Source: Octopus vulgaris (Eukaryota). Taken from it: DNA of 50,000 nucleotides. Below the pieces are notes generated by a model that was not told where the DNA came from, made no database searches, and saw nothing but the letters and a program-made list of their open reading frames with translations. The DNA is taken from NCBI GenBank assembly GCA_951406725.2, contig CATOCA020000028.1, forward strand, positions 1-50,000. Direction: 5' to 3'. Both the position numbers and the translations under genes were made by a program. Position 1 is the first letter of the stretch. Each line of letters begins with the position of its first letter. Of this stretch, positions 2,927-44,117 are shown piece by piece.

Positions 2927-2980
<54 letters not shown>

Positions 2981-3050: not shown

Positions 3051-3107
<57 letters not shown>

Positions 3108-3258: not shown

Positions 3259-3294
<36 letters not shown>

Positions 3295-4105: not shown

Positions 4106-4449
4106 TGATGGTAACTACGATGATGAAGACGTTGACGATGATGGCGGCGGAGATGGGAACGACAACGACAAAGAAAACGAAAATGACGTCATGATGACGA
4201 CAACGACGAAGACGGTGAAGATGATGACGATAATGATGACGATAATGATGACAATGGTAGCATTGGAATTTGTTGGTGGTTTTACAAAAAGTATCTCTAC
4301 AAGATTAGCCGTAATGATTAAAAGAACGATACGGGTAGATTACGTAACCACGGTCGGAAGAGTGATATATTTGCTCAACATTCGGGCAGTGGCTCTTCTT
4401 CGGCGTTGCACACAACTTATGTAGAATATCAGTAAAAGAGTAGAAAGCA

Positions 4450-15914: not shown

Positions 15915-16746
15915 GCTCTGGGCGCCATTGGGCTCACTGTCCACGGCTACGAGACCACAGTGAGCGCTACGGCGACCAGAGCTCGCTCTGGGCGCCGTTG
16001 GGCTCACTGTCCACGGCTACGAGACCACAGTGAGCGCTACGGCGACCAGAGCTCGCTCTGGGCGCCGTTGGGCTCACTGTCCACGGCTACGAGACCACAG
16101 TGAGCGCTACGGCGACCAGAGCTCGCTCTGGGCGCCGTTGGGCTCACTGTCCACGGCTACGAGACCACAGTGAGCGCTACGGCGACCAGAGCTCGCTCTG
16201 GGCGCCGTTGGGCTCACTGTCCACGGCTACGAGACCACAGTGAGCGCTACGGCGACCAGAGCTCGCTCTGGGCGCCGTTGGGCTCACTGTCCACGGCTAC
16301 GAGACCACAGTGAGCGCTACGGCGACCAGAGCTCGCTCTGGGCGCCGTTGGGCTCACTGTCCACGGCTACGAGACCACAGTGAGCGCTACGGCGACCAGA
16401 GCTCGCTCTGGGCGCCGTTGGGCTCACTGTCCACGGCTACGAGACCACAGTGAGCGCTACGGCGACCAGAGCTCGCTCTGGGCGCCGTTGGGCTCACTGT
16501 CCACGGCTACGAGACCACAGTGAGCGCTACGGCGACCAGAGCTCGCTCTGGGCGCCGCTGGGCTCACTGTCCACGGCTACGAGACCACAGTGAGCGCTAC
16601 GGCGACCAGAGCTCGCTCTGGGCGCCGTTGGGCTCACTGTCCACGGCTACGAGACCACAGTGAGCGCTACGGCGACCAGAGCTGCTCTGGGCGCCGTTGG
16701 GCTCACTGTCCACGGCTACGAGACCACAGTGAGCGCTACGGCTCTG
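15915..16746. repeat. GC-rich 70-bp tandem repeat, ~12 near-identical units, each a long imperfect hairpin
   Basis: Unit GCTCGCTCTGGGCGCCGTTGGGCTCACTGTCCACGGCTACGAGACCACAGTGAGCGCTACGGCGACCAGA. Confidence 0.95.
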
Positions 16747-16767: not shown

Positions 16768-18872
16768 GGCTCGGCTCGGCTCGGCTCGGCTCGGCTCGGC
16801 TCGGCTCGGCTCGGCTCGGCTCGGCTCGGCTCGGCTCGGCTCGGCTCGGCTCGGCTCGGCTCGGCTCGGCTCGGCTCGGCTCGGCTCGGCTCGGCTCGGC
16901 TCGGCTCGGCTCGGCTCGGCCCGGCCTCGGCTCGGCTCGGCTCGGCTCGGCTCGGCCGGCTCGGCTCGGCTCGGCTCGGCTCGGCTCGGCTCGGCCCGGC
17001 TCGGCTCGGCTCCGCTCGGCTCGCTCGGCTCGGCTCGGCTCGCCCGGCCCGGCTCGGCTCGGCTCGGCCGGCCGGCTCGGCTCGTCTCGCTCGGCCTCGT
17101 CTCGGCTCGGCTCGGCTCGGCTCGGCTCGGCTCGCCCGCCCGCGTCTCGGCCCGGCTCCGGCCCGCCCGGCTCGGCTCGCTCGGCTCGGCCGCTGCGCCT
17201 GCTCGGCTCGGTCTCGGCTCGGCCCGGCTCGGCCTCGGCCCGCCTCGGCCCGGCCGGCCCGCCCGGCCTCGGCTCGCTCGGCTCGCCCGCCTCGGCCTGC
17301 CTCGGCTCGGCTCGGCCCGCCTGCCCGCCCGCCCGGCTCGGCTCGGCTCGCCTCGCCTCGGCTCGCCTGCCTGCCTGCCTGCCTGCCTGCGCCCGGCCCG
17401 GCTCGGCTCGGCTCGGCTCGGCTCGTCTCGGCCCGGCCCGCCCGGCTCCGCCTCGGCTCGTCTCGGCTCGGCTCGTGCCTGCCTGCCTGGCCGCCCGCCC
17501 GGCTCGGCTCGGTCTCCGCTCTCGGCTCGGCCCGCTCGGCCCGTCTCGGCTCGGCCCGCCTCGCCTCGGCTCGCTCTGCCTGCCTGCCCGCCCGCTCGGC
17601 TCGGCTCGGCCCGGCCCGCCCCCGCCCGGCCCGGCTCGGCCCGGCCCGCCCGCCCGCCCGGCCCGTCTCGGCTCGGCTCGGCCCGGCCCGCCCGCCCGGC
17701 TCGCCTCGGCTCCGCCCGCCTCGGCTCGGCTCGGCCCGCCTGCCTGCCTGCCCGCCTCGCCCGGCCCGGGCCTGCCCGCCTGCCCGCCTCGCCTCGCCCG
17801 CCCGCCCGCCCGCCTGCCCGCCCGCCCGGGCTCGGCTCGGCTCTCGCCTGCCTGCCTGCCTGCCTGGCTCCGCCCGCCCGCCTGCCTCGCCTCGCCTCGC
17901 CTGCCTGCCTGCCTGCCCGGCTCGGCCTCCTGCCCGCCTGCCGCCCGCCTGCCTCGGGCTCGGCCCGCCCGCCCGGGCTGCCTGCCCGCCTGCCTGCCTG
18001 CGCCTGCCTGGCCCGCCTCGCCCGGCTCGCCCGCCCCGCTCTCGGCTCGGGCTCTCGCCCGCCTCGCCTGCCTCGGCTCGGCCTCGCCCCGGCTCGCTCC
18101 GGCTCCTGCCTGCCCGGCCCGGCCCGCCTCGGCTCGCCTCGGCCTGCCTGCCTCCCGGCTCGCGCCTCGGCTCGGCTCGGCCTCCTGGGCTCGGCCGCTC
18201 GGCCTCGGCCTCGGCCTCGGCCCGGCCCGGCTCGCCTCGGCTCGGCCCGCCTCGGCTCGGCCCGGCCCGGCCTCGGCCTCGGCCCGCCCGCCCGGCCCTC
18301 GGCCTCGGCTCGGCTCGGCCCGGCCCGGCCCGGCCCGGCCTCGGCTCGGCTCGGCTCGGCTCGGCTCGCTCGGCTCGGCTCGGCCCGTCTCGGCCCGGCT
18401 CGCTCGGCTCGGCTCGGCTCGGCTCGCCGCCCGGCCCGGCCCGGCCCGGCCCGGCTCGGCCCGGCCTCGGCTCGCGGCCCGGCCCGGCCCGGCTCGGCTC
18501 GGCTCGGCTCGGCCCGGCCCGGCCCGGCCTCGGCTCGCCGGCCCGGCCCGGCCGCCCTCGGCTCGGCCCGGCCCGGCCCGGCTCGGCTCGGCTCGGCCCG
18601 GCCCGGCTCGGCCTCGGCTCGGCTCGGCTCGGCTCGGCCCGGCCCGCCCCGGCTCGGCTCGGCTCGGCTCGGCTCGGCTCGGCTCGGCTCGGCTCGGCTC
18701 GGCTCGGCTGCCGGCCTCGGCTCGGCTCGGCTCGGCTCGGCTCGGCTCGGCTCGGCTCGGCTCGGCTCGGCTCGGCTCGGCTCGGCTCGGCTCGGCTCGG
18801 CTCGGCTCGGCTCGGCTCGGCTCGGCTTGGCTTGGCTCGGCTTGGCTTGGCTTGGCTTGGCTTGGCTTGGCT
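16768..18872 (+). repeat. (GGCTC)n pentanucleotide tract, degenerate in the middle, ending in (GGCTT)n
   Basis: Direct reading of the sequence. No A seen on the plus strand across ~2.1 kb. Confidence 0.95.
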
Positions 18873-19742: not shown

Positions 19743-21069
19743 GACGGTGTCCACAAAGACTGCGTACATGGGAATTAACACATACTTTTAAAACAAAACA
19801 ATTTTATTTAATTATAATGTTAATAAATAATATTTTCAAAGTGATTTCCATCATTTTCAATGCATAACTTGATGCGCCTTGCAAAATTCAGGTGAACTTG
19901 ATTAAATAAGTCTACATTGCCATCAATTTAAGCACACTGACTGGTAATGCGTTCTCTCGTGTGTTTTAAATCTGTAATCTTTATTGAGTAAACTTTCTCT
20001 TTCAACATACCCCAGAAAAAGAAATCAAGGGGAGAAAGGTCTGGTGAACGAGGGGACCATTCCATATGACCCCTTCTTCCAATCTAGTGAGGAGGAAAAG
20101 TGTCATTAAATCAATCTCTAACAGTTGTGGCAAAATGGGTAGGGGCCCCATCCTGCTGAAACCAATTCGGAAGGCCCTCACCTAGGCGCTCAATTTAAGA
20201 TATTAATTTGTCTCTCAATATATTTGCATAAGTCTCATCCGTTACATGTTCAATGAAGAAGGGTCCTAGAACATGAGCTTTCCAAAAACCACACCACACC
20301 ATCACCTTTTTGCTGTCTTGCTGTTTGGATAGATCCATCCAATGTGGATTACCTCGAGACCAGTATAGAAGATTCTGTCTGTTGACCTCACCATTTACAT
20401 AAAACGTAGCTTTGTCACTGAACAACACAAAGTTTTTCGTAAAATTGATATTTTCATCCAATTTATCTGAAAACCATTCGCACGTCTACATTCATCTATC
20501 ATGATCGTCTTCATTTAAGTGATGCAATATCTGTAGTTGTATCGATGAAACTTTTCCTCAACCAGCATTTTGTGGATGGTTGGTTTGGGAACACCTAACA
20601 CCGTAGATGTCCGACGAAGTGATTTTTTGGGGCTAGCTAGCAGAAACTTTAGCCTCGACAGCCTCTTTAGTTTCATCTGAAGTCTTTGGTCGCCCGGAAC
20701 GGGTTTATCCGAAACACTGCCTGTGTCTTTAAATGTCTTGATCAATTTTCTGACGGCAGTAAAATAAATAGGTTGCCTACAAGGGTGTGGAAGATTAAAT
20801 TCTTCCGCAATTTTGCGATAAGACCATCCCTCTCGTCCACTTAATAATACTAACTCGATTCTTTCTTCTTTAGACAGATTCATCATTCGATCTGGGATTC
20901 TTTCTTCTTTAGACAGAGCCATCATTCAATCATCTGTAGAAAAAATAACAAATAAATTTAGAAAAGTAAAGTATTTTTTTTATTTAATTTAAACAAAAGT
21001 AAAAAAGGAAAATTATTATTTCTTATGTTATGATTTTATTCCATAAACCCAGACTTCGTGGACACCCTA
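19743..21069 (-). mobile_element. Nested Tc1/mariner-superfamily element (maT/DD37D-like), frameshifted transposase
   Basis: TIRs GGTGTCCACAAAGACTGCGTACATGG / CCATAAACCCAGACTTCGTGGACACC. Motifs LFSDxATFYVNGEVNRQN, KVMVWCG, FQQDGAP and WSPRSPDLSPLDFFFWG. N-terminal HTH in ORF 20515-20925. Confidence 0.8.
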
Positions 21070-21098
21070 AAATTGCTTTGATTAAAACCCCTTTCAAC

Positions 21099-22073
21099 AT
21101 GGAAGTATCCAAGGAGCATTTAAGGCACATATAATTCTTTATGAGTACAATAAAGGTAACTCTGCTGCCGAAGTGACTCGAAACATACACTCAGTTTATG
21201 GCAAAGTGCTCGAATGAAAGAACTTGCAGGAGATCGTCTGCAAAATTGAAGATGAATATCGAACAGGATGTCCAGTTGAGTTTGACAAGCTCCTTGAGGC
21301 ATTACTTGAAGAAAATCCGTCATTATCAGTTGAAGAATTGGCAATAAAGCTTACTTCAAACCATACAACAGTTCATCGTCATCTACAACAACGTGGAAAG
21401 ATTCCTAAACTTGGAAAATAGGTGCCTTATGTATTGTCCGAAAGCAACCGCAAATCCCGAGTTGGCATCTGCTCTTCTCACCATTTTTCGATAGACTTGT
21501 GATGAAAAATGGATTTTCTATCGAAATGTTAGACGTCGTAAACAGTGGCTTGGTAAAAGGGAAAATTCTCAACCACAACCGAGAAGGGAACTTCATAGTA
21601 AAAAGGTTCTACTCTCTATCTGGTGCGATTGCAAAGGCGTAATTCACTTTATATTGTTACCACCTAATGCAACAATCAATGCTCAAGTCTACTGTCAGCA
21701 ATTAGAGCGTTTGAACCAAGCTTTGAAGGAAAAAAGAGCCGCTTTAGTGAGTCGAAAACGAGTGATGTTTCATCAGGACAATGCGCAACCCTACACTGCA
21801 AAGATCACATCACAGAAGATCGAAGGGGTCGGTTTGGAAAAATTTCTTCATCCAACTTATTCTCCCGACCTTACTCCTTCAGGATACCATTTGTTTCATA
21901 GTTTACAGAATTAGTAGGGGGATACAACTTTCGCAAGCCAGGGGGAGGTCGAACCTGACATTTCAGAGTTCTTCGCTTTGAAACCAAAAGAGTTTTACGT
22001 TGATGGGATTAAAAAGCTTGTAAATAGATGGAGGTAAGTCATAGATAATTAGGGAAAGTACATTGATGATTAA
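21099..22073 (+). pseudogene. Mariner transposase pseudogene
   Basis: MEVSKEHLRH start. TCDEKW, FHQDNAQP and HPTYSPDLTPSGYHLF motifs are spread over several frames. Confidence 0.85.
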
Positions 22074-22547
22074 CTTTCAATTAAATATAACATTTGATCA
22101 CTTGTATTATTTATCCAAAATTCAGGCAGAACTTATGGGATGACCTGAGATATATACACTGGCGAAAATATATTTAAGACAGACGATAAAAGTTCTATTT
22201 CTTACAAAATATTTTGTTACTAACACCATACAATTTATTTTTATCTTCTACACCTTATGCAAAATTTATTTCGCTTTCGAATGATGCAGACAATAACCAT
22301 TTTTATACAACTTGAAGAATTCTAATGCTAAATATAATTTTAATGGAGATAACCTGCAGTATATAGTACAACATTTTTGTCTCCGTATATGAGCTAAGTA
22401 TTAATAAAATGTGGTATACGATAAAAATTTCGGATATTTGTCTTAAAACATTCAGACAAGAAAATTCAGATGTAGCACATGAGGTATTATTCCATACGAA
22501 TATCCACATATTTATATTAAGAATTTCATGATAAAAATATAGAAATA

Positions 22548-23113
22548 TTGGGTTGTCCGGAAAGTTCTTGCAGATTTATAGTAGCTTATCTTTCGACTTA
22601 TTTTAGAACATGTTTGAGTCCATAAAATAGGATTTGACTACACCTCCATTTGGAGCACAGTTTAATCTATCTTTTCGTGGAAGAAGGTTTATGTTCCAAT
22701 AACCTGTGTTAATTCTGTAACCCTTTAAATTAAAAGATGAGAAAAATTCATTATCGGCATTTGATGCTTTGGGAACCAGACAAAAATTGCTGCAGCTTGG
22801 CTGGGGTGACTTACCCCACCCTCCATATTCACCAGATATTACTCCTTCGGATTTCCACTTATTCAGGTCTCTGCAGAATAGTCTTAATGGTGAAAATTTC
22901 AATTCCTTAGATGACGTTAAAAGATACCTTGATGAATTATTTGCCTTGAAACCACCCCAATTCTGGGAAGAGGGTATTTTTAAGGTAAATGTAAGATGGA
23001 GACGTATTGTGCAACGAAATGGTTCAGATTTGGTTCATTAAAAATGTAATGGCAAGTATTTAGTGACATGTACTTTCCTTTAAAAATCGGAACGAACTTT
23101 CCGGACAACCCAA
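22548..23113 (+). mobile_element. Internally deleted mariner (566 bp) with TA flanks
   Basis: TIRs TTGGGTTGTCCGGAAAGTTC / GAACTTTCCGGACAACCCAA. C-terminal transposase ORF 22769-23041 with HPPYSPDITPSDFHLFRSLQN. Confidence 0.9.
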
Positions 23114-23326
23114 TATAAACATGAAAAATAAAAACCTAAATTGAAAGAGGCGATTAAAATTTTTTCCTAACCTGCAGCCGTTTGTTGTTCGAAGTATTCG
23201 AAATTCAGCCCTCCTTCCTCAGGGTTCCTTTCTCGAGGTAAAATCCAGCAGAAAGCAGTAAGGCACTACATAGTGAGTATTCAAGTGGTGAAAGTTCAGT
23301 TTTTGGGTATCGATAAATAAGTTGCC

Positions 23327-24615
23327 TTATTTCTTTATTACCCACTAGGGGCGAACATAGAGGGGACAATACAATCTGATGTGGGGTCAGACTAGTCTAT
23401 TATTGGTAGCCTTAATGGTCATAAATGAATTGGTTACTTCCTTTCTCTTCTTCTGGTTCTCTTCTTGAGGGGTGGTTTCTGTTTTCCGTTTTTTTTTTTT
23501 GGTAACTTTTGACCACCCCTCCTCTTTTTCTTTTTCTGCACCACTTGATGATTCTACTACCTCTTTGGTTTCATGTGTTTTTTCCTCTGTTTTCTTTTCT
23601 GTTTCTGTTTCTTCCTTTTCCGACGGTGCTTCTACCTGCGGTTTAGGTTGACACTCTGCTCTTACGTGTCCCTTTTTTCCGCAGCCGAAGCACCTCGGCT
23701 TTCTTCCTTCTACGAAAACTAACACTCTCTCCTCCTCACTGAGCCTCAGTACCTCCGGTATTTCTTCCAGTGTTTGGACTTCGGCTTGGATTGCCATTGT
23801 GATGCTCTGGCCTTGCCAAAACCCCTCCTCCTCCACTGTAGCTTGGAGGATTGTGATTTTGTCCTTCAGGCCTAGCATCACTGTTCCGAACCTTCTGCCT
23901 CTGTTTATGTATTTTATGTCTTTTCTTATTGCCTTCAGACACTCCTCTATTTTCTTTTCTTCCACTTTTTGGATGCTTTTTGTTGTTATATTGTAGGTCT
24001 TATAAATGATCCTTTTCTTTTCTATTTCTTCTTTCTTTCCGACATCTGCTTCCACTGCTATTTCGTTTCCTTCTTTTTTCAGAAAGACTTCATATTTTTC
24101 CAGGTTGCTGCTATCTGTGTTGATCCTTTTTTGTTTTCGCCCTGCGACTTCCGCGAACTTCTTCGCTGGGGCCTTTTCTTTTTCCGGCGTCATCGCCGAT
24201 CCTTTTTCCGGCGTCACCGCCGGTGAACTTTCTTCACCTGAGGTTGGTGAACTTTCATCACCTGAGATCGGTGAATATGAGATAGGGAGTTCCATCTCAA
24301 GCTTTTTCAATTGGCTTTCACAGCCTTCAGAAGACATTTTGGCTTTGCAAGCCATTTGTAGATTTTTAAATGTGTACCACACAAGATGTCCCACAATAAT
24401 TCCCCCGCAAGGGGGGAACTAAATACGCAGCCTTCGCGCGAAGGCCACTGACAGTCTTATTAAAAGACACAAAATAACAATATTAACACAGCAACAATAA
24501 ACTACTAACTTTCAACAACACTATTTCAGACAAAAAAACTCACGTTTCGTTTTGAGAATCAATGAATAAGTCAAAGTAACGTCCTATCGGCTTCACGACT
24601 GCATAATGTTGGGTG
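23327..24615 (-). mobile_element. ORF1-only (ORF2-less) derivative of the Tx1-like LINE, unit 0 of the array
   Basis: Has the family 5' UTR, a diverged ORF1 and the last ~65 nt of the 3' UTR. The ORF1 C-terminus and all of ORF2 are missing. Confidence 0.9.
23387..24337 (-). CDS. Shortened LINE ORF1 protein with CCHC zinc knuckle
   Basis: Open frame MSSEGCES...CFGCGKKGHVRAEC...ATNNRLV*. It has a 55-aa in-frame deletion relative to the full units. Confidence 0.75.
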   Translation of the reverse strand: MSSEGCESQLKKLEMELPISYSPISGDESSPTSGEESSPAVTPEKGSAMTPEKEKAPAKKFAEVAGRKQKRINTDSSNLEKYEVFLKKEGNEIAVEADVGKKEEIEKKRIIYKTYNITTKSIQKVEEKKIEECLKAIRKDIKYINRGRRFGTVMLGLKDKITILQATVEEEGFWQGQSITMAIQAEVQTLEEIPEVLRLSEEERVLVFVEGRKPRCFGCGKKGHVRAECQPKPQVEAPSEKEETETEKKTEEKTHETKEVVESSSGAEKEKEEGWSKVTKKKKRKTETTPQEENQKKRKEVTNSFMTIKATNNRLV

Positions 24616-24865
24616 TTTTATTATTACCCACAAGGGGCCAACAAAGAGGGGACAATACAACCTGATGTGGGGTCAGATTCACGTATGAGGTTACAAAAGT
24701 ATGAGTTTAAAAATTTCAAAAATTTACAAAAATTGCAAAAATTATAAAAATCGAATGAGAAAAAACAGACCGGAAGACACTACAGGTGGAGTGGGGGCGG
24801 GTTCAGCTCGGACCCCACGAGCCCCGCCTCACCACTGATACTTTTGGTTTCGTTTTGATCTACAT

Positions 24866-27800
24866 TTATGTGGTGTCATCCATTCTCAACTTCCGTGCTA
24901 CATCCTTCCATCGTTCTTCATACACTCTTTTAGTCAGGCATTTTCTCTCCAGCCCTATCTTCCTTTTCAGGTGGTAGATGAAGTAATTCATCAACCCAGG
25001 GCCGGATATGAACTTGCCTGACCGTATACCTTTCATTCTCGTCTTCCATATCACCTCCTTCGCAATTGCTACCACAACGAGAAAACAAGTCTTACCTTCT
25101 TTCGCGAGGAAATCTGGTGGGTCAATTTTTTTAATACACTCAGTCGACAGCTGTACTCTTCGTGTGCTTGACAACAGCTGTTCGGCATAAACCCACACCT
25201 CAGACACGTCCGAACAATGAACAATAGCGTGCGGGACGGTTTCCCTATCCCGCCCGCATCTTGGACACATCGGACTGTCTTGGCCACCGTGCCTTGCGAG
25301 TTTATCCCGAACAGGTAGAGCTCCTCTGTAGCATTGCCATGCCAGAGACTTCTGGAAGTTGTCCAGAGTCTTCGGCTCGAACGTACGTCGGAACAGACTA
25401 GCCAGCTGATTATCGTCGAGACCCAGGGTTTCCCCAAGGTGTCTTCACATTCCGCCTCTACCAACCCTCTATAGAAGAATGTGGTGGAACCCCCACCGCA
25501 GGCGTTGCCCGAGCGACGGAATAGCAGGAGGGCCTTTCGACACTCCGTATACCATGTACCGAGTTTCGATCTACGATTCAACCAGGTTTCCCATCCACCG
25601 AAACTAGTGAACTTGGGAAACATCAGTTTTGCTAACGGAGACCACACCCGTTCACCATCCAGGTAGAGCCACAGATGTCTTAACCTCAGCGCATGTCTGC
25701 GCATCATCAGCCAAGGCATCCCTAGCCCACCCTTTAACGGTTGTTGACAGCAAGTAGAGCGTTTCACAAGTGGTTTCCTGCCCTTCCACAGGAAGTAGAA
25801 GAGCTGTCTTTCCAACTTGGTCAACCACGAATCAGGGCATGGAACGACGGAAAGGCGGTAGATGATAACCGATGCGATAAACACATTGGCCACCTCCGCC
25901 CTCCCTTTCAAGGATAGCCACCGCCTAGACCAGGTCTTGGCTACTGCAGCCACCTTGCTCGTTACCTCGCCCCAATTCTTCTCTATTTGGAGGTCTGGAC
26001 CGAACCAGACCCCTAGCAGTTTAATCGGACCCTCCGTCCAACGTCCCACGACGCTGTCAGGAGGCATCGACTTGCCTCTCCAGGTGCCGAGTTGCAAGCC
26101 GACTGACTTTTCGCGATTAACTTTTGCTCCTGTCACCGTCTCGTAATCCTCTATGGCCTTGCCTACTTTACATAGGTGGTCCATTTCGGTCACGATGATG
26201 GTGATGTCGTCCGCGTACGCTGACACTGATTTTCCATTACCTGGCTGTCTCGGGATGCCGCTCAGTTTTCGCAGTAATGGCTCAAGAGCCATCACGTACA
26301 AAAGCGGGGAGAGCGGACACCCTTGACGAACCGAGCGTTTGATTTTGAACGGCTTCGACAAGAAGCCGTTCACCCGAACTACCGAGTCGATGTTGTCGTA
26401 AATTTGGATAATCCACCTGAGGAAGCCAAGGCCCAGCCCGAACTGTGCCAGAGCAGACACCAGGTAACGATGGTCGACCCTATCAAAAGCTTTGGATTGG
26501 TCTAAATGGACCAGTGCCCCACCCTTGCCAGAATCACTATTAAACCCCTCTATAGTGTACCGCATTAGATGGAGATTATCCTGAATGGTTCTGCCCGGAA
26601 CGGCACATGTCTGTGCCTCCCCGATCAGACCATCCGCGACACGCGCCAATCTTTTCGATAACACTTTGGCCAAAATCTTCAACTCTGTGTTTAGCAGAGT
26701 GATGGGCCTGAAATTATCAATGCACTCCCCCTTGCTCGGGTCCTTTCTGACGAGAGTCACCACTCCCCGGCGCACAGATCTGGGTATCAACCCGTTCTGC
26801 TGCCAGTTCGCATAGACTTCCGCCAGTAGGTGCCCGAACAAGTCTGGCATATTCTTATATAACTCGTAGGGTAGACCATCCAAACCCGGCGCCTTGCCCG
26901 CGCCGCAGTCCGCCATTGCCTCCACCACCTCCTCAGGCGTGATTGGCCCTTCACAGCCCTCCGCATCTCGCCCCGATAAGCGCGGCAGCCCGTCGAGTAG
27001 GTCCGTAAAGGCCCTCCTCCTATCCAGTCCGCCGCACTCACCGAAAAGCTGAGCGAAGTGCTCCTGAAAGGCCTCACACATCTCCTCGGGTTCGTCTATC
27101 AACTCACCTTGTTGGTTCTTCAAAGATCGAATCGTGGCATCGTTGCCATTCCGGGCTTCCACCACTCGGGCCCATCTCACGGCGTTGATTCCTTCACATC
27201 CCATATGACGGATTCTAGCCCTGACAATGCAGCCCATGTGTTTGGCCTCGAGGTGCTGGTTTAACACCAGTCTCTTGGACGCCACCTGAGCCGCAGAGCC
27301 AGTTTTCATGGCTTCCTCTAATTCCTTAACTAGAGTAGTTTCCCTTCTAGCCTCTCTAGACACTACTCCTATGCTATATCTAATAGACTCAAACTTGATG
27401 GCTCGTTTGAGGGCGTACCACCATTTGTTATTAATGATGGCACCAGACAGCGCCCTCTGAATTATGGTCCTAATCCGGTCTCTGTACTCCTTAATCGCCA
27501 AAAGGGACGTATTAAGTTTCCAGTAACCGGATCCTCTCTTTCTAACCTTATCTATGTCAAGCTTACAGGTGACCATTTTATGATCACTGTAGCTGATCGG
27601 GTAAAACTGTGGACGCTTAGCTATTTTACTGTCTACCTTTCTAATTAGAATTCTATCTATGTATGACCTGGAAGATCCGTCGCTGTTTGACCATGTCCAC
27701 AATGGAGCGTTCGGAAATTCCAACCTATAAGGATCTGCTAGCTCAAAGCGGCTTAGCAGTTCCAGGAAGCATGTGTTACCTTTTCTATCATTCGAGCCAA

Positions 27801-28260
27801 CACAATCTACATCCGCTTTGCAAATTGTGTTAAAGTCTCCTAGCACAACTATTGAATGCGAAGTACCGAGAAAGTTCTCTAGATCACGATAATAATCACT
27901 TTGCCCATTATTACTGCAGGGTGCGTAAATTGCAACCAGTCTGATAACTTTACCGTTACTGAACGTCAAATCCATGACGACCAGCCTACCTTCTGGGTCT
28001 GAAAAAATTAACTTTTTCTCAAAAACCCGGTTTCTTTTTAGTAGGACCAACACCCCACTCCCGCCTGCAGGACTGCCAGGAGAGAAAAAACTCTCGTAGC
28101 CGTCAAACAGTGGGAGTAGATCTCTTGGCCCCTTTAACCGGGTTTCTGTAGCAACAATAACATCCAAATTGCGCGACCTGATATCATTAAGGAAGCGACC
28201 TTGCTTCCCGCTTGATCCCAGGCCGCGCACATTTAAACAACCAACAGAAATGTAGTTCAT
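24866..28260 (-). CDS. ORF2: APE endonuclease + reverse transcriptase + C-terminal zinc finger (one frameshift near 25.43 kb)
   Basis: APE motifs LNVRGL, ETRL, YAP, GDFN, IDRI, SDH. RT motifs KAPGLDG, NFRPITLLN, DQSKAFDRVDH, QGCPLSP, YADD. Zinc finger CPRCGRDRETVPHAIVHC. Confidence 0.92.
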
Positions 28261-28268
28261 CACTTACC

Positions 28269-29599
28269 TTATATCGGTAGTTTGGCTTTTTCGGCGGTTT
28301 CGCCTTCTTCTTCATTTTTTTTTTCTTTGGCTCGTGGGGAGTCCGACGTAGGCCCTCGTATAGATATGGAGACATGTCCAGTCTCAGAGGGCCCACGTCG
28401 TGGAAGAACTCGGATTTTATCCTCCTGTAGTCCTTCCGGCCTATTTTATATATGATGAAGTCTTTCATCTTCCTTATACGTTCCACCTTGGCCATGGCTG
28501 CCAACACATTGACAAGTCTGTTGTTAGTAGCCTTAATGGCCATAAATGAAGAAGTAACCTCTTTCCTTTTCTTTAGGTTTTCTTCTTCTTGAGGGGTGGT
28601 TTCAGTTTTCCGTTTTTTTTTGGTAACTTTAGACCACCCCTCCTCTTTTTCGTTTTCTTTTTCCTTTTCTGCAGCTTTTTCCACCTCTTTGGTTTCCTTT
28701 TTTTCCTCCGTTTCTTCTTTCTCCGACGGTTCTTCTGTCTGCGGTTTCGGTTGACACTCCGCTCTCACGTGCCCCTTCTTTCCGCAGCCGAAGCACCTCG
28801 GTTTTCTTCCTTCTACAAATACTAGAACTCGCTCCTCCTCATCTAGCCTCAGCACCTCTGGTATTTCTTCCAGAGTCTGGGCCTCTGCTTGTATAGCCAT
28901 TGTTATGATCTGGCCCTGCCAAAATCCCTCCTCCTCCACTGTAGCTTGGAGGATGTTGATTTTTTCTTTCAGGCCCAGCATCACTGCCGCCACCAGGCAT
29001 GAGGCGTCTGCCTCTGGGGGAATATTTCTCATTACTATCTTTGAAGTCCTTCTTCCTTTGTACAAGGGTAGAAGGACTAGATTTCCCGCTTTCTGAGGTT
29101 CTGTGGATAGCTTCTTAGCTATTTCTTCGGTTCTGAACCTCACTTCTACTGTTCCGAACCGTCTTCCTCTATTTATGTAAGTGATATCTTTTCTGATTGT
29201 CTTCAGGCACTCCTCTATTTTGCATTCTTCCACTTTTTGTATGCTTTTTGTAGTCGTGCTGTATGTCTTGTATATAATTCTTTTTTTTTCTATCTCTTCC
29301 TTTTTTTCCATATCTTTTTTCACTGCAATTTCATTTCCTTCTTTCTTTAGAAGGTCTTCATATTTCTCTAGGTTTTCTATATCTATATCTTTCTGTTTGC
29401 GTCCAACAACTTCCGCAAACTTCTTTGTTGGGGCCTTTTGTTCTGGCGTTACCGCCGATTCTTTTTCCGGTGTCACCGCCGGCGTGCTTCTCTCACCCGA
29501 GGTTTGAGATTCTTCATCACCTGAGATGGGTGAATAGGTAATGGGGAAATCCATTTCGAATTTTCCTTCCAGTTTGTATTCACTGCCTTCCAAAGACAT
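28269..29599 (-). CDS. ORF1: gag-like nucleic-acid-binding protein with CCHC knuckle (C-terminal frame ambiguous from homopolymer indels)
   Basis: MSLEGSEY... with Cx2Cx4Hx4C knuckle and K/E-rich tail. The stop is placed by analogy with unit 5 (49399). Confidence 0.85.
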
Positions 29600-29625
29600 T
29601 CTGGCTTTGCAGCCGTTAGTAGAAA

Positions 29626-29659
<34 letters not shown>

Positions 29660-29872
29660 GATGTGTTTCGTACACGAAGGCACACAATAATTCCCCCACG
29701 GGGGGAACTACGTACACAACCTTCGCGCGAAGGCCACTAACCGTCTTATTGAAAAGACACAAAATAACAATATTAACACAGCAACAATAAACTACTAACT
29801 TTCAACAACACTATTTCAGACAAAAAAACTCACGTTTCGTTTTTGAGAATCAATGAATAAGTCAAAGTAACG

Positions 29873-29906
29873 TCCTGTCGGCTTCACGACTGCATAATGT
29901 TGGGTG
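29873..29906 (-). promoter_or_regulatory. Putative internal Pol II promoter (MTE/DPE-like) at the unit 5' end, present at every junction
   Basis: CACCCAACATTATGCAGTCGTGAAGCCGACAGGACGT places a DPE-like GGACG about 30 nt from the junction. Confidence 0.35.
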
Positions 29907-30154
29907 TTTTATTATTACCCACAAGGGGCCAACAAAGAGGGGACAATACAACCTGATGTGGGGTCAGATTCACGTATGAGGTTACAAAAGTATGAGTTTA
30001 AAAATTTCAAAAATTCACAAAATTGCAAAAATTATAAAAATCGAATGAGAAAAAACAGACCGGAAGACACTACAGGTGGAGTGGGGCGGGTTCAGCTCGG
30101 ACCCCACGAGCCCCGCCTCACCACTGATACTTTTGGTTTCGTTTTGATCTACAT

Positions 30155-33100
30155 TTATGTGGTGTCATTCATTCTCAACTTCCGTGCTACATCCTTCCAT
30201 CGTTCTTCATACACTCTTTTAGTCAGGCATTTTCTCTCCAGCCCTATCTTCCTTTTCAGGTGGTAGATGAAGTAATTCATCAACCCAGGGCCGGATATGA
30301 ACTTGCCTGACCGTATACCTTTCATTCTCGTCTTCCATATCACCTCCTTCGCAATTGCTACCACAACGAGAAAACAAGTCTTACCTTCTTTCGCGAGGAA
30401 ATCTGGTGGGTCAATTTTTTAATACACTCAGTCGACAGCTGTACTCTTCGTGTGCTTGACAACAGCTGTTCGGCATAAACCCACACCTCAGACACGTCCG
30501 AACAATGAACAATAGCGTGCGGGACGGTTTCCCTATCCCGCCCGCATCTTGGACACATCGGACTGTCTTGGCCACCGTGCCTTGCGAGTTTATCCCGAAC
30601 AGGTAGAGCTCCTCTGTAGCATTGCCATGTCAGAGACTTCTGGAAGTTGTCCAGAGTCTTCGGCTCGAACGTACGTCGGAACAGACTAGCCAGCTGATTA
30701 TCGTCGAGACCCAGGGTTTCCCCCAAGGTGTCTTCACATTCCGCCTCTACCAACCCTCTATAGAAGAATGTGGTGGAACCCCCACCGCAGGCGTTGCCCG
30801 AGCGACGGAATAGCAGGAGGGCCTTTCGACACTCCGTATACCATGTACCGAGTTTCGATCTACGATTCAACCAGGTTTCCCATCCACCGAAACTAGTGAA
30901 CTTGGGAAACATCAGTTTTGCTAACGGAGACCACACCCGTTCACCATCCAGGTAGAGCCACAGATGTCTTAACCTCAGCGCATGTCTGCGCATCATCAGC
31001 CAAGGCATCCCTAGCCCACCCTTTAACGGTTGTTGACAGCAAGTAGAGCGTTTCACAAGTGGTTTCCTGCCCTTCCACAGGAAGTAGAAGAGCTGTCTTT
31101 CCAACTTGGTCAACCACGAATCAGGGCATGGAACGACGGAAAGGCGGTAGATGATAACCGATGCGATAAACACATTGGCCACCTCCGCCCTCCCTTTCAA
31201 GGATAGCCACCGCCTAGACCAGGTCTTGGCTACTGCAGCCACCTTGCTCGTTACCTCGCCCCAATTCTTCTCTATTTGGAGGTCTGGACCGAACCAGACC
31301 CCTAGCAGTTTAATCGGACCCTCCGTCCAACGTCCCACGACGCTGTCAGGAGGCATCGACTTGCCTCTCCAGGTGCCGAGTTGCAAGCCGACTGACTTTT
31401 CGCGATTAACTTTTGCTCCTGTCACCGTCTCGTAATCCTCTATGGCCTTGCCTACTTTACATAGGTGGTCCATTTCGGTCACGATGATGGTGATGTCGTC
31501 CGCGTACGCTGACACTGATTTTCCATTACCTGGCTGTCTCGGGATGCCGCTCAGTTTTCGCAGTAATGGCTCAAGAGCCATCACGTACAAAAGCGGGGAG
31601 AGCGGACACCCTTGACGAACCGAGCGTTTGATTTTGAACGGCTTCGACAAGAAGCCGTTCACCCGAACTACCGAGTCGATGTTGTCGTAAATTTGGATAA
31701 TCCACCTGAGGAAGCCAAGGCCCAGCCCGAACTGTGCCAGAGCAGACACCAGGTAACGATGGTCGACCCTATCAAAAGCTTTGGATTGGTCTAAATGGAC
31801 CAGTGCCCCACCCTTGCCAGAATCACTATTAAACCCCTCTATAGTGTACCGCATTAGATGGAGATTATCCTGAATGGTTCTGCCCGGAACGGCACATGTC
31901 TGTGCCTCCCCGATCAGACCATCCGCGACACGCGCCAATCTTTTCGATAACACTTTGGCCAAAATCTTCAACTCTGTGTTTAGCAGAGTGATGGGCCTGA
32001 AATTATCAATGCACTCCCCCTTGCTCGGGTCCTTTCTGACGAGAGTCACCACTCCCCGGCGCACAGATCTGGGTATCAACCCGTTCTGCTGCCAGTTCGC
32101 ATAGACTTCCGCCAGTAGGTGCCCGAACAAGTCTGGCATATTCTTATATAACTCGTAGGGTAGACCATCCAAACCCGGCGCCTTGCCCGCGCCGCAGTCC
32201 GCCATTGCCTCCACCACCTCCTCAGGCGTGATTGGCCCTTCACAGCCCTCCGCATCTCGCCCCGATAAGGCGCGGCAGCCCGTCGAGTAGGTCCGTAAAG
32301 GCCCTCCTCCTATCCAGTCCGCCGCACTCACCGAAAAGCTGAGCGAAGTGCTCCTGAAAGGCCTCACACATCTCCTCGGGTTCGTCTATCAACTCACCTT
32401 GTTGGTTCTTCAAAGATCGAATCGTGGCATCGTTGCCATTCCGGGCTTCCACCACTCGGGCCCATCTCACGGCGTTGATTCCTTCACATCCCATATGACG
32501 GATTCTAGCCCTGACAATGCAGCCCATGTGTTTGGCCTCGAGGTGCTGGTTTAACACCAGTCTCTTGGACGCCACCTGAGCCGCAGAGCCAGTTTTCATG
32601 GCTTCCTCTAATTCCTTAACTAGAGTAGTTTCCCTTCTAGCCTCTCTAGACACTACTCCTATGCTATATCTAATAGACTCAAACTTGATGGCTCGTTTGA
32701 GGGCGTACCACCATTTGTTATTAATGATGGCACCAGACAGCGCCCTCTGAATTATATTCCTAATCCGGTCTCTGTACTCCTTAATCGCCAAAAGGGACGT
32801 ATTAAGTTTCCAGTAACCGGATCCTCTCTTTCTAACCTTATCTATGTCAAGCTTACAAGTGACCATTTTATGATCACTGTAGCTGATCGGGTAAAACTGT
32901 GGACACTTAGCTATTTTACTGTCTACCTTTCTAATTAGAATTCTATCTATGTATGACCTGGAAGATCCGTCGCTGTTTGACCATGTCCACAATGGAGCGT
33001 TCGGAAATTCCAACCTATAAGGATCTGCTAGCTCAAAGCGGCTTAGCAGTTCCAGGAAGCCACTGTTACCTTTTCTATCATTCGAGCCAACACAATCTAC

Positions 33101-33548
33101 ATCCGCTTTGCAAATTGTGTTAAAGTCTCCTAGCACCACTATTGAATGCGAAGTACCGAGAAAGTTCTCTAGATCACGATAATAATCACTTTGCCCATTA
33201 TTACTGCAGGGTGCGTAAATTGCAACCAGTCTGATAACTTTACCGTTACTGAACGTCAAATCCATGACGACCAGCCTACCTTCTGGGTCTGAAAAATTAA
33301 CTTTTTCTCAAAACCCGGTTTCTTTTTAGTAGGACCAACACCCCACTCCCGCCTGCAGGACTGCCAGGAGAGAAAAAACTCTCGTAGCCGTCAAACAGTG
33401 GGAGTAGATCTCTTGGCCCCTTTAACCGGGTTTCTGTAGCAACAATAACATCCAAATTGCGCGACCTGATATCATTAAGGAAGCGACCTTGCTTCCAGCT
33501 TGATCCCAGGCCGCGCACATTTAAACAACCAACAGAAATGTAGTTCAT
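30155..33548 (-). CDS. ORF2 APE-RT (several 1-nt frameshifts)
   Basis: ORF pieces 33297-33551, 32240-33265, 30358-32367 and 30155-30364. Confidence 0.85.
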
Positions 33549-33556
33549 CACTTACC

Positions 33557-34885
33557 TTATATCGGTAGTTTGGCTTTTTCGGCGGTTTCGCCTTCTTCTT
33601 CATTTTTTTTTCTTTGGCTCGTGGGGGAGTCCGACGTAGGCCCTCGTATAGATATGGAGACATGTCCAGTCTCAGAGGGCCCACGTCGTGGAAGAACTCG
33701 ATTTTATCCTCCTGTAGTCCTTCCGGCCTATTTTATATATGATGAAGTCTTTCATCTTCCTTACTCGTTCCACCTTGGCCATGGCTGCCAACACATTGAC
33801 AAGTCTGTTGTTAGTAGCCTTAATGGCCATAAATGAAGAAGTAACCTCTTTCCTTTTCTTTAGGTTTTCTTCTTCTTGAGGGGTGGTTTCAGTTTTCCGT
33901 TTTTTTTTGGTAACTTTAGACCACCCCTCCTCTTTTTCGTTTTCTTTTTCCTTTTCTGCAGCTTTTTCCACCTCTTTGGTTTCCTTTTTTTCCTCCGTTT
34001 CTTCTTTCTCCGACGGTTCTTCTGTCTGCGGTTTCGGTTGACACTCCGCTCTCACGTGCCCCTTCTTTCCGCAGCCGAAGCACCTCGGTTTTCTTCCTTC
34101 TACAAATACTAGAACTCGCTCCTCCTCATCTAGCCTCAGCACCTCTGGTATTTCTTCCAGAGTCTGGGCCTCTGCTTGTATAGCCATTGTTATGATCTGG
34201 CCCTGCCAAAATCCCTCCTCCTCCACTGTAGCTTGGAGGATGTTGATTTTTTCTTTCAGGCCCAGCATCACTGCCGCCACCAGGCATGAGGCGTCTGCCT
34301 CTGGGGGAATATTTCTCATTACTATCTTTGAAGTCCTTCTTCCTTTGTACAAGGGTAGAAGGACTAGATTTCCCGCTTTCTGAGGTTCTGTGGATAGCTT
34401 CTTAGCTATTTCTTCTGTTCTGAACCTCACTTCTACTGTTCCGAACCGTCTTCCTCTGTTTATATAAGTGATATCTTTTCTGATTGTCTTCAGGCACTCC
34501 TCTATTTTGCATTCTTCCACTTTTTGTATGCTTTTTGTAGTCGTGCTGTATGTCTTGTATATAATTCTTTTATTTTCTATCTCTTCCTTTTTTTCCATAT
34601 CTTTTTTCACTGCAATTTCATTTCCTTCTTTCTTTAGAAGGTCTTCATATTTCTCTAGGTTTTCTATATCTATATTTTTCTGTTTGCGTCCAACAACTTC
34701 CGCAAACTTCTTTGTTGGGGCCTTTTGTCTGGCGTTACCGCCGATTCTTTTTCCGGTGTCACCGCCGGCGTGCTTCTCTCACCCGAGGTTTGAGATTCTT
34801 CATCACCTGAGATGGGTGAATAGGTAATGGGGAAATCCATTTCGAATTTTCCTTCCAGTTTGCATTCACTGCCTTCCAAAGACAT
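33557..34885 (-). CDS. ORF1 (frameshifted)
   Basis: ORF pieces 34670-34969, 33672-34610 and 33475-33684. Confidence 0.8.
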
Positions 34886-34911
34886 TCTGGCTTTGCAGCC
34901 GTTAGTAGAAA

Positions 34912-34945
<34 letters not shown>

Positions 34946-35441
34946 AATGTGTTTCGTACACGAAGGCACACAATAATTCCCCCACGGGGGGGAACTACGT
35001 ACACAACCTTCGCGCGAAGGCCACTAACCGTCTTATTGAAAAGACACAAAATAACAATATTAACACAGCAACAATAAACTACTAACTTTCAACAACACTA
35101 TTTCAGACAAAAAAACTCACGTTTCGTTTTTGAGAATCAATGAATAAGTCAAAGTAACGTCCTGTCGGCTTCACGACTGCATAATGTTGGGTGTTTTATT
35201 ATTACCCACAAGGGGCCAACAAAGAGGGGACAATACAACCTGATGTGGGGTCAGATTCACGTATGAGGTTACAAAAGTATGAGTTTAAAAATTTCAAAAA
35301 TTCACAAAATTGCAAAAATTATAAAAATCGAATGAGAAAAACAGACCGGAAGACACTACAGGTGGAGTGGGGGCGGGTTCAGCTCGGACCCCACGAGCCC
35401 CGCCTCACCACTGATACTTTTGGTTTCGTTTTGATCTACAT

Positions 35442-38400
35442 TTATGTGGTGTCATTCATTCTCAACTTCCGTGCTACATCCTTCCATCGTTCTTCATACA
35501 CTCTTTTAGTCAGGCATTTTCTCTCCAGCCCTATCTTCCTTTTCAGGTGGTAGATGAAGTAATTCATCAACCCAGGGCCGGATATGAACTTGCCTGACCG
35601 TATACCTTTCATTCTCGTCTTCCATATCCCTCCTTCGCAATTGCTACCACAACGAGAAAACAAGTCTTACCTTCTTTCGCGAGGAAATCTGGTGGGTCAA
35701 TTTTTTAATACACTCAGTCGACAGCTGTACTCTTCGTGTGCTTGACAACAGCTGTTCGGCATAAACCCACACCTCAGACACGTCCGAACAATGAACAATA
35801 GCGTGCGGGACGGTTTCCCTATCCCGCCCGCATCTTGGACACATCGGACTGTCTTGGCCACCGTGCCTTGCGAGTTTATCCCGAACAGGTAGAGCTCCTC
35901 TGTAGCATTGCCATGCCAGAGACTTCTGGAAGTTGTCCAGAGTCTTCGGCTCGAACGTACGTCGGAACAGACTAGCCAGCTGATTATCGTCGAGACCCAG
36001 GGTTTCCCCCAAGGTGTCTTCACATTCCGCCTCTACCAACCCTCTATAGAAGAATGTGGTGGAACCCCCACCGCAGGCGTTGCCCGAGCGACGGAATAGC
36101 AGGAGGGCCTTTCGACACTCCGTATACCATGTACCGAGTTTCGATCTACGATTCAACCAGGTTTCCCATCCACCGAAACTAGTGAACTTGGGAAACATCA
36201 GTTTTGCTAACGGAGACCACACCCGTTCACCATCCAGGTAGAGCCACAGATGTCTTAACCTCAGCGCATGTCTGCGCATCATCAGCCAAGGCATCCCTAG
36301 CCCACCCTTTAACGGTTGTTGACAGCAAGTAGAGCGTTTCACAAGTGGTTTCCTGCCCTTCCACAGGAAGTAGAAGAGCTGTCTTTCCAACTTGGTCAAC
36401 CACGAATCAGGGCATGGAACGACGGAAAGGCGGTAGATGATAACCGATGCGATAAACACATTGGCCACCTCCGCCCTCCCTTTCAAGGATAGCCACCGCC
36501 TAGACCAGGTCTTGGCTACTGCAGCCACCTTGCTCGTTACCTCGCCCCAATTCTTCTCTATTTGGAGGTCTGGACCGAACCAGACCCCTAGCAGTTTAAT
36601 CGGACCCTCCGTCCAACGTCCCACGACGCTGTCAGGAGGCATCGACTTGCCTCTCCAGGTGCCGAGTTGCAAGCCGACTGACTTTTCGCGATTAACTTTT
36701 GCTCCTGTCACCGTCTCGTAATCCTCTATGGCCTTGCCTACTTTACATAGGTGGTCCATTTCGGTCACGATGATGGTGATGTCGTCCGCGTACGCTGACA
36801 CTGATTTTCCATTACCTGGCTGTCTCGGGATGCCGCTCAGTTTTCGCAGTAATGGCTCAAGAGCCATCACGTACAAAAGCGGGGAGAGCGGACACCCTTG
36901 ACGAACCGAGCGTTTGATTTTGAACGGCTTCGACAAGAAGCCGTTCACCCGAACTACCGAGTCGATGTTGTCGTAAATTTGGATAATCCACCTGAGGAAG
37001 CCAAGGCCCAGCCCGAACTGTGCCAGAGCAGACACCAGGTAACGATGGTCGACCCTATCAAAAGCTTTGGATTGGTCTAAATGGACCAGTGCCCCACCCT
37101 TGCCAGAATCACTATTAAACCCCTCTATAGTGTACCGCATTAGATGGAGATTATCCTGAATGGTTCTGCCCGGAACGGCACATGTCTGTGCCTCCCCGAT
37201 CAGACCATCCGCGACACGCGCCAATCTTTTCGATAACACTTTGGCCAAAATCTTCAACTCTGTGTTTAGCAGAGTGATGGGCCTGAAATTATCAATGCAC
37301 TCCCCCTTGCTCGGGTCCTTTCTGACGAGAGTCACCACTCCCCGGCGCACAGATCTGGGTATCAACCCGTTCTGCTGCCAGTTCGCATAGACTTCCGCCA
37401 GTAGGTGCCCGAACAAGTCTGGCATATTCTTATATAACTCGTAGGGTAGACCATCCAAACCCGGCGCCTTGCCCGCGCCGCAGTCCGCCATTGCCTCCAC
37501 CACCTCCTCAGGCGTGATTGGCCCTTCACAGCCCTCCGCATCTCGCCCCGATAAGCGCGGCAGCCCGTCGAGTAGGTCCGTAAAGGCCCTCCTCCTATCC
37601 AGTCCGCCGCACTCACCGAAAAGCTGAGCGAAGTGCTCCTGAAAGGCCTCACACATCTCCTCGGGTTCGTCTATCAACTCACCTTGTTGGTTCTTCAAAG
37701 ATCGAATCGTGGCATCGTTGCCATTCCGGGCTTCCACCACTCGGGCCCATCTCACGGCGTTGATTCCTTCACATCCCATATGACGGATTCTAGCCCTGAC
37801 AATGCAGCCCATGTGTTTGGCCTCGAGGTGCTGGTTTAACACCAGTCTCTTGGACGCCACCTGAGCCGCAGAGCCAGTTTTCATGGCTTCCTCTAATTCC
37901 TTAACTAGAGTAGTTTCCCTTCTAGCCTCTCTAGACACTACTCCTATGCTATATCTAATAGACTCAAACTTGATGGCTCGTTTGAGGGCGTACCACCATT
38001 TGTTATTAATGATGGTACCAGACAGCGCCCTCTGAATTATGGTCCTAATCCGGTCTCTGTACTCCTTAATCGCCAAAAGGGACGTATTAAGTTTCCAGTA
38101 ACCGGATCCTCTCTTTCTAACCTTATCTATGTCAAGCTTACAAGTGACCATTTTATGATCACTGTAGCTGATCGGGTAAAACTGTGGACGCTTAGCTATT
38201 TTACTGTCTACCTTTCTAATTAGAATTCTATCTATGTATGACCTGGAAGATCCGTCGCTGTTTGACCATGTCCACAATGGAGCGTTCGGAAATTCCAACC
38301 TATAAGGATCTGCTAGCTCAAAGCGGCTTAGCAGTTCCAGGAAGCATGTGTTACCTTTTCTATCATTCGAGCCAACACAATCTACATCCGCTTTGCAAAT

Positions 38401-38832
38401 TGTGTTAAAGTCTCCTAGCACCACTATTGAATGCGAAGTACCGAGAAAGTTCTCTAGATCACGATAATAATCACTTTGCCCATTATTACTGCAGGGTGCG
38501 TAAATTGCAACCAGTCTGATAACTTTACCGTTACTGAACGTCAAATCCATGACGACCAGCCTACCTTCTGGGTCTGAAAAAATTAACTTTTTCTCAAAAC
38601 CCGGTTTCTTTTTAGTAGGACCAACACCCCACTCCCGCCTGCAGGACTGCCAGGAGAGAAAAACTCTCGTAGCCGTCAAACAGTGGGAGTAGATCTCTTG
38701 GCCCCTTTAACCGGGTTTCTGTAGCAACAATAACATCCAAATTGCGCGACCTGATATCATTAAGGAAGCGACCTTGCTTCCACCTGATCCCAGGCCGCGC
38801 ACATTTAAACAACCAACAGAAATGTAGTTCAT
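35442..38832 (-). CDS. ORF2 APE-RT (frameshifts near both ends)
   Basis: Main ORF 35644-38679 with the same motifs as unit 1. Confidence 0.85.
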
Positions 38833-38840
38833 CACTTACC

Positions 38841-44109: not shown

Positions 44110-44117
44110 TACTTACC

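Follow-up and report, generated by a model that had tools for sequence, protein, structure and literature searches.

A doubly deleted ORF1 copy at the end of a tandem LINE array in Octopus vulgaris

Introduction

What kind of element is left when a long interspersed nuclear element (LINE) has lost its second open reading frame (ORF2) and keeps an open ORF1 together with its 3′ tail? This question is raised by a 50,000-nt stretch of the Octopus vulgaris genome (assembly GCA_951406725.2, contig CATOCA020000028.1, positions 1 to 50,000 of the forward strand), hereafter referred to as the window. From 24616 to the end of the window, five LINE units of about 5.3 kb each (units 1–5) are arranged head to tail on the minus strand, and the terminal unit of this array, unit 0, first delimited as 23327–24615 (−), is a short copy from which ORF2 is absent. 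An earlier note on this DNA had proposed that unit 0 is either a member of a mobile non-autonomous partner family, as HAL1 and HeT-A are, or the founding landing pad of the array. The analysis described here gives a modest preference to another reading, that of a young copy with two deletions, descended from a sister subfamily of the L1/Tx1-type LINE that forms the array.

Results

The part of unit 0 that belongs to its own lineage extends from 23327 to about 24461 (−) and is about 80% identical to units 1–5 over ORF1. Its open frame (23387–24355, −) encodes 322 aa from the first ATG and 316 aa, the length given in the earlier note, from the ATG at 24337. The frame includes the first half of one RNA recognition motif (RRM1), the second half of another (RRM2), a CCHC zinc knuckle, a K/E-rich linker and the start of a C-terminal motif. 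The knuckle (23651–23692, −; C-x2-C-x4-H-x4-C) is intact, as previously noted, and its match to Pfam zf-CCHC (E 0.05) stays under the cut-off of that family. Both deletions that had been described were borne out. Junction 1 (23880–23883, −) carries a CAGT microhomology and marks an in-frame loss of 165 nt (55 aa). Junction 2 (23390–23391, −), with a TC microhomology, places late ORF1 directly before the final 60 nt of the unit-1-type tail, and 3,835 nt have been lost relative to unit 1 (28510–24676). With breakpoints drawn at random in unit 1 as the null, the microhomology of 4 nt exceeds chance (P 0.02) and that of 2 nt does not (P 0.17). Splicing was rejected as the origin of the deletions because neither junction has GT...AG ends in register.

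Junction 2 lies at the foot of a 6-bp stem-loop (23374–23392, −), the 5′ arm of which supplies the TGA stop codon (23389–23387), in agreement with the origin claimed for it earlier. An immediate stop at this junction is unremarkable, as one frame in three stops at once and two in three stop within the tail. The 3′ tail (23327–23389, −) is kept, with 93% identity to the array tails over 57 nt and an AATAAA at 23339–23334; as a whole it folds no better than shuffled sequences (z −1.28). Each junction string is present once in the window, which contains one copy of the unit 0 type.

Comparison of ORF1 between unit 0 and unit 1 over 304 codons gave 0.90 synonymous (dS) and 0.11 non-synonymous (dN) substitutions per site, with dN/dS 0.12 (bootstrap 0.075–0.18); the differences number 102 synonymous vs 73 non-synonymous (195 and 717 sites, respectively). 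These values indicate that the ORF1 of unit 0 split from the array ORF1 long ago and that purifying selection acted on it during most of the time since. The constraint reaches both junctions: dN/dS is 0.05 in each orphaned RRM half, and the 17 codons preceding junction 2 hold 7 synonymous vs 3 non-synonymous base differences. Since half-domains and half-motifs are not expected to stay constrained, selection would have acted on an intact, probably autonomous parent, and both deletions would then be recent relative to the split. The branch of unit 0 in the tree of the RRM2/CCHC region is about 0.02; in this tree 9 of the 11 inner branches are open, so that it is useful for the short terminal branch only.

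The fate expected of an open frame was calculated for neutral decay of 0.5–2%, for which survival is 0.81–0.43 without indels and 0.58–0.12 with indels. At a decay of about 0.02 the open frame survives with a probability of 0.12–0.43, and with more at lower decay. Given these odds and the inherited constraint, neither the open frame nor the low dN/dS speaks for present function. The earlier note had looked to dN/dS against full ORF1 for a distinction between a family and a dead copy; the ratio could be computed, but it is not assignable to the time after the deletions and thus cannot decide between the two.

Relatives of unit 0 were then collected from protein sequences. Search with unit 0 gave 6 matches among 2456 candidates, and search of shorter proteins gave none among 366 candidates. 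An ORF1 profile search yielded 532 matches, of which the best 150 were taken further. Among the matches listed, 273 proteins were scanned for the junctions (120 of them ORF2 matches), and neither junction was found in the 153 ORF1 relatives; this is weak evidence, as the collection contains none of the three ORF1s of the window. None of the proteins P0001–P0004 is encoded exactly by the window.

Conservation was examined in an alignment of 63 relatives, composed of three of the six direct protein matches and 60 of the 150 listed profile matches. Of the 17 core columns with a conservation of at least 70%, 8 fall within the deleted 55 aa, and the block is missing in none of the 42 relatives that span both of its sides (P0135 keeps 37 of the 55 residues). 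The full ORF1 core was modelled from a 65-row alignment with pLDDT 94 and pTM 0.80 as two beta-alpha-beta-beta-alpha-beta domains followed by the knuckle. This model gave 68 Foldseek matches at E <= 0.001 against tandem-RRM proteins, and was superimposed on the La RRM with Z 9.3 and rmsd (root-mean-square deviation) 2.5 over 82 aligned residues. The 55-aa loss takes away the second half of domain 1 and the first half of domain 2; both predicted RRMs are broken in unit 0. The model of the unit 0 core was poorer (pLDDT 76, pTM 0.52), with no Foldseek match at E <= 0.001 and with partial structural matches that cover only residues ~73–136 (best Z 3.6). A hybrid single RRM was considered for unit 0 and rejected, as it did not form in the model; the lack of a strong structural match is weak evidence if taken alone. 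At the C-terminal side, junction 2 cuts a motif that runs on in P0006, P0214, P0128 and P0138. Most of the replacements in the unit 0 core are residues also present in relatives.

The parent element was characterized from the units of the array. In unit 1 (24616–29906, −) ORF1 lies at 29599–28187 and ORF2 at 28260–25069. Units 2 (29907–35193, −) and 3 (35194–40474, −) are full-length and carry single-base frameshifts, and unit 4 (40475–45744, −), also full-length, has ORF2 and the 3′ untranslated region (UTR) of a second subtype. Unit 5 (45745–50000, −) is cut by the window end and is a mosaic of the two subtypes; its ORF2 (49390–45995, −) is open over 1131 aa with endonuclease, reverse transcriptase (RT) and zf-RVT. 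For the array ORF2, Pfam Exo_endo_phos, RVT_1 and zf-RVT were all found above cut-off. In a search of solved structures the nearest protein to the array RT was L1 ORF2p (E 2e-65), with R2 far behind (E 5e-26), and one named RT match, P0092, labelled Transposon TX1 149 kDa protein, shows 38% identity across the RT region. Tx1-clade ORF1 is characterized by two RRMs and a CCHC knuckle, and the structure model of the parent ORF1 matches this layout. We call the parent an L1/Tx1-type LINE, the Tx1 assignment being a name-based lead. With the Tx1-clade LINEs Tx1, Keno, Kibi, Koshi and Tx1-Mar, as described in PMC4494074, the parent shares the endonuclease, RT and C-terminal zinc motif. Preference for a target sequence is common in that clade (PMC4494074), whereas no target (RNA gene, microsatellite or DNA transposon) was identified for the array; as to an RNA-gene target or a small nuclear RNA head, no Rfam match came near the gathering score at the junction or in the flank.

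Near-identical full-type ORF1s were detected by protein search on contigs that have three different lengths, indicating that the array lineage is not restricted to one place. Two of the ORF1 relatives carry a species label, Octopus sinensis and Octopus vulgaris, and for RT the nearest relative with a name belongs to Argonauta. Beyond the cephalopods, the RT proteins most similar to that of the array (P0011–P0078) come from ENA/JGI contigs with 47–54% identity, and the named turtle and coral matches are more distant (38–42%).

The array itself is a mosaic between the two subtypes: unit 5 changes subtype at alignment columns 1650 and 5114, and in unit 4 the second subtype spans columns 1521 to 5201. 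The second-subtype ORF2 of units 4 and 5 is 1–10% per 250 nt away from units 1–3. Unit 4 has an inter-ORF region and a 3′ UTR of its own, and its ORF1 and last ~100 nt are common to all units. Single-base indels in homopolymers break ORF1 or ORF2 in most units, and a complete ORF2 of 1131 aa is present in unit 5 only. These indels could be long-read errors, in which case the array may be intact and active. Directly before ORF1, units 1–4 carry an A tract of 29–30 nt (29629–29658, 34915–34944, 40199–40227 and 45468–45496), and unit 0 has 5 A. On the minus strand of unit 1, a donor-like GTGAGT is located at 29833 within its 155-nt block, and a branch-point-like TACTAAC at 29621, a little upstream of the ORF1 start. 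Judged by consensus sequences, these two could delimit an intron in the 5′ UTR; TACTAAC is absent from unit 0.

The 5′ end of unit 0 proved to be composite. Its first ~155 nt (24462–24615, −) are of array type: this unstructured block (z +1.79) contains no substitution absent from units 1–4 and one 1-nt homopolymer gap. With 15–20% divergence, the chance of at most one substitution in the block is P < 1e-9. From about 24452 onward, unit 0 differs from the array at about one base in five. The description of unit 0 as clearly diverged thus holds for ORF1 but not for 24462–24615, which lies within the variation of units 1–4; likewise, of the two termini that had been taken as retained, the 3′ tail is kept but the 5′ end is unproven. 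The block is followed by a structured leader of the unit 0 lineage (24365–24461, −), with hairpins at 24427–24448 and 24397–24421 that are also formed in the array version; its folding is marked in both unit 0 (z −4.28) and unit 1 (z −4.18), reached by none of 200 shuffles in each case. At the step from block to leader, a run of T is followed by C, by T or by no base, varying by unit. The block is either 5′ UTR from the array lineage or a 3′ extension of unit 1, and the own 5′ end of unit 0 is uncertain.

The flank of unit 0 was also compared with the block. A 22-nt motif at 23301–23322 (−) is identical at 18 of 22 positions to 24571–24550 within the block. This likeness, possibly target-related, is suggestive only: it was reached in 3 of 1000 shuffles, in 84 of 3000 random segments of the window, and in 0 of 3000 when limited post hoc to parts near the junction. 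The motif follows every tail, 12 nt after that of unit 0 and 49 nt after those of the array. A 6-nt repeat, which with an alternative boundary would be a putative target duplication of unit 0, is no better than chance (P 0.22), and at the boundary as first delimited no inter-unit target duplication matching the unit 0 flank was found in the window, the far flank lying outside it.

Two routes of attachment were rated equal, each at a little under an even chance. By the first, unit 0 was already in place as the resident copy or first template, with its true start at about 24461, and unit 1 joined it on the 5′ side, either by inserting there or through a template jump from end to end; the 155-nt block would then be a 3′ extension of the array element, possibly a transduced target flank. 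The switch from array to unit 0 coincides with the step from unstructured to structured sequence and with the variable C/T/absent base, the 22-nt motif of the block resembles the 3′ flank of unit 0, and R1 arrays offer a precedent, as new units insert there at the 5′ target duplication of a copy already present (PMC2718515). The unequal spacing of the motif from the tail (12 vs 49 nt) and the chance level of the 6-nt duplication speak against this route, as does the fact that unit 0 and the SINE-like repeats described below stop at the tail without the block. By the second route, the 155 nt are genuine 5′ UTR, and crossover, gene conversion or template switch with the array lineage at about 24452–24470 made unit 0 chimeric; it is then simply the terminal unit. 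The array is demonstrably mosaic, so exchange does occur; the units are separated by no target duplication matching the unit 0 flank; and unequal exchange is a standard route by which tandem elements expand (PMC5932611). This leaves unexplained why the switch falls at a structural boundary and why block and flank share a motif. As for the founding landing pad, unit 0 is terminal and the most diverged unit, and a founding position is possible, but the boundary moves to about 24461 by the first route and unit 0 is not the founder by the second.

The 3′ tail led to a further set of elements in the window. The last ~46 nt of the unit 0 tail match three repeats resembling short interspersed nuclear elements (SINEs) at 443–487, 1213–1260 and 1398–1444 with 83–87% identity, and the match scores 50 bits vs a maximum of 29.2 in 199 shuffles. 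The extreme end of the unit 0 tail is closer to these repeats than the array tails are. The first tail belongs to a repeat at 440–623 (−), and the other two to a pair of 185-bp head-to-tail units at 1077–1445 (+). The layout of this pair echoes that of the LINE array. One of the SINE-like repeats is flanked by a 10-nt duplication, and the repeats may belong to known octopus SINE families.

SINE/LINE pairs with a common 3′ tail have been described (PMC3747384). By this common-tail rule, the unit 0 lineage is a candidate partner LINE of the octopus SINE-like repeats, the likeness to such pairs being the ~46-nt 3′ end in common, which is best with the unit 0 version. The L1-clade examples found in PMC3747384 are from plants and a green alga, and octopus is not mentioned in its main text. 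The octopus SINEs OR1 and OR2 are named in the accessible parts of PMC4824008 and PMC4758252 without a partner LINE. No pairing of a SINE with the tail of an octopus LINE was found in the titles and abstract openings covered by our literature search; Repbase and subscription journals, including Ohshima and Okada 1994, were outside its scope, and the pairing may be on record there. The shared tail suggests that an autonomous parent of the unit 0 lineage probably existed and that copying in trans may need no more than the tail, which helps both the dead-copy and the family readings discussed below. It also points to stringent 3′-end recognition in an animal L1/Tx1-type element. As all SINEs make up about 11.6% of the O. 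vulgaris genome (PMC13282606), a candidate partner for this abundant class may outweigh in interest the identity of unit 0 itself.

Discussion

The reading that we favour by a modest degree, a young and doubly deleted copy of a sister subfamily, accounts for an ORF1 that is old and constrained up to both junctions and from which folded domains have been cut. The large deletion most probably stems from a jump of the reverse transcriptase, which after copying about 60 nt would have moved from the base of the 3′ stem-loop to late ORF1; we give somewhat less weight to DNA end-joining. The small deletion may have come from a microhomology jump or from DNA repair. The protein of unit 0 would be a relic without an intact RRM. 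With the tail retained, its RNA might still serve as a template in trans, and nothing found here indicates such copying. The array lineage would have become joined at about 24461, either by addition of unit 1 at the true 5′ end of unit 0 or by exchange within the 5′ UTR, after which the array would have been enlarged and mixed by unequal exchange. A precedent for inactivation of this kind is given by Hebe, the copies of which carry microhomology deletions, four in one case (PMC2861651).

Several observations weigh against this reading. The intact parent of the unit 0 lineage was not found among the ORF1 relatives, the closest of which is 86% identical. The protein collection is thin for such ORFs, as shown by its lack of the three ORF1s of the window. 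All other members of the alignment used to model unit 0 carry the deleted block, which may have handicapped the model. Finally, propagation through RNA would also favour two deletions with little decay, as well as a 3′ breakpoint placed where it is, at the base of the stem-loop and within the final ~65 nt of some 3,900; with random breakpoints this placement would happen in about 2% of cases, a value open to ascertainment bias.

The foremost alternative, which we consider possible though clearly less probable, is that unit 0 is one member of a young non-autonomous family, which the LINE ORF2 copies in trans through the 3′ tail, with the ORF as a passenger. The tail has been kept to its stem-loop and is 93% conserved, against a dS of 0.9 in ORF1; the ~46 nt shared with SINE-like repeats suggest copying in trans; the structured leader is kept as well; and the combination of two deletions, little decay and a 3′ breakpoint that keeps little beyond the SINE-shared part would be natural for such a family. 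A precedent exists in the R2/R1 SIDEs, which are interspersed with R1 in tandem arrays (PMC3414825). The single copy in 50 kb and the lack of a junction-bearing protein among the 153 ORF1 relatives listed speak against a family, and the constraint up to both junctions leaves little time for its history. The large deletion may also be family-wide and the small one private to unit 0.

A 316-aa product that is functional and currently selected in the manner of HAL1 or HeT-A, be it as a helper, a dominant-negative subunit or a fused single-RRM ORF1, appears improbable. The open frame, the in-frame deletion and the intact CCHC agree with it, as do core replacements mostly known in relatives, and beta1-alpha1-beta2 of RRM1 with beta2-beta3-alpha2-beta4 of RRM2 could in principle make a hybrid RRM. 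The model, however, contains no complete hybrid RRM, its matches being confined to residues ~73–136 at a best Z of 3.6; the conserved block and the C-terminal motif have been lost; and an in-frame deletion has a prior of 1/3, an open frame being expected in a young copy. A consensus chimera of long reads, either in unit 0 or where it meets unit 1, is very unlikely: the homopolymer indels across units 1–5 would be typical of long-read error, but mostly synonymous differences cannot come from sequencing error, and both junctions lie at a microhomology or a structural boundary.

Unit 0 can be compared with known ORF1-bearing bipartite non-autonomous LINEs, namely HAL1 (L1), HeT-A (Jockey) and Ag-Sponge (CR1) (PMC5786205, PMC5753468). 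Unit 0 is like them in keeping ORF1 and the 3′ tail, possibly with the 5′ part, and in having lost ORF2 by internal deletion. They are multicopy families, the ORF1p of which is thought to work, whereas unit 0 is present once in the window, with an ORF1 that lacks its best-conserved block and the C-terminal part. The list accessible in PMC5786205 contains no Tx1-derived example. If 'one protein corresponding to ORF1p' in that source is read, as we read it, to mean an intact folded ORF1 core, unit 0 does not qualify. Of the HAL1/HeT-A-like partner family proposed in the earlier note, the ORF2-less, internally deleted derivative with a 3′ tail stands, but the open frame, dN/dS and both termini do not carry the proposal, and the 55-aa loss breaks the RRMs.

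Other systems resemble unit 0 in part. In Hebe, 5′-complete copies likewise have internal microhomology deletions, one to four per copy (PMC2861651); these deletions are 12–200 bp with 5–14 bp of microhomology, whereas the 3.8-kb loss in unit 0 has 2 nt and ends at the foot of the tail stem-loop. R2, the R2/R1 SIDEs and tandem R1 (PMC3414825, PMC2718515) share the arrangement of a deleted element within a head-to-tail array of full-length partners. SIDEs carry a ribozyme at the 5′ end, lack an ORF and are separated from one another by a target duplication of 14 bp; no such duplication was found for unit 0. In the leader and 3′ UTR there was no Rfam ribozyme match, no hammerhead core and no match to a descriptor for ribozymes resembling that of hepatitis delta virus, a simple descriptor that could miss a diverged ribozyme. 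Tandem LINEs are known in Drosophila (PMC5932611). Neither a Tx1-derived ORF1-only family nor an octopus array of this kind appeared in the titles and abstract openings of the literature, Repbase being outside the scope of that search.

Under either of the two leading readings, unit 0 falls among element types already known. As a single copy, it would be an ordinary deleted LINE that records a sister subfamily and the way in which such arrays start. If multicopy, it would bring a Tx1-type member to the few non-autonomous LINEs that carry ORF1. A bolder combination, which we consider rather doubtful, is that unit 0 is a copy of a recently mobile, ORF1-bearing, non-autonomous Tx1-type family that rides on a stringent SINE-shared tail and seeds arrays with 155-nt target-like 3′ extensions. 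In that combination the extension, lying directly upstream of the leader of the next unit, would possibly be its promoter, as in HeT-A.

Other features of the window

Beyond the 3′ end of unit 0, a possible host exon lies at 23178–23274 (+), with a branch point, an acceptor-like start, a donor-like end and an open frame of 31 codons; if so, the array would be antisense within an intron. A 572-nt stretch at 22545–23116 between 36-bp inverted repeats (89% alike) is presumably mariner-like, and further transposase-like remnants seem to be present at about 19750–22150. A GC-rich 70-bp tandem repeat occupies 15915–16742 (11.8 copies, 99% matches) and is directly followed at 16768–18872 by a satellite of about 425 copies of the GGCTC 5-mer, 4.5 kb from the array. 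ARAGORN detected no tRNA gene in the window, including 7357–7428, where the sole match from an Rfam scan of the whole window, a marginal tRNA match (30.5 bits, cut-off 29) remote from the array, perhaps represents a SINE head.

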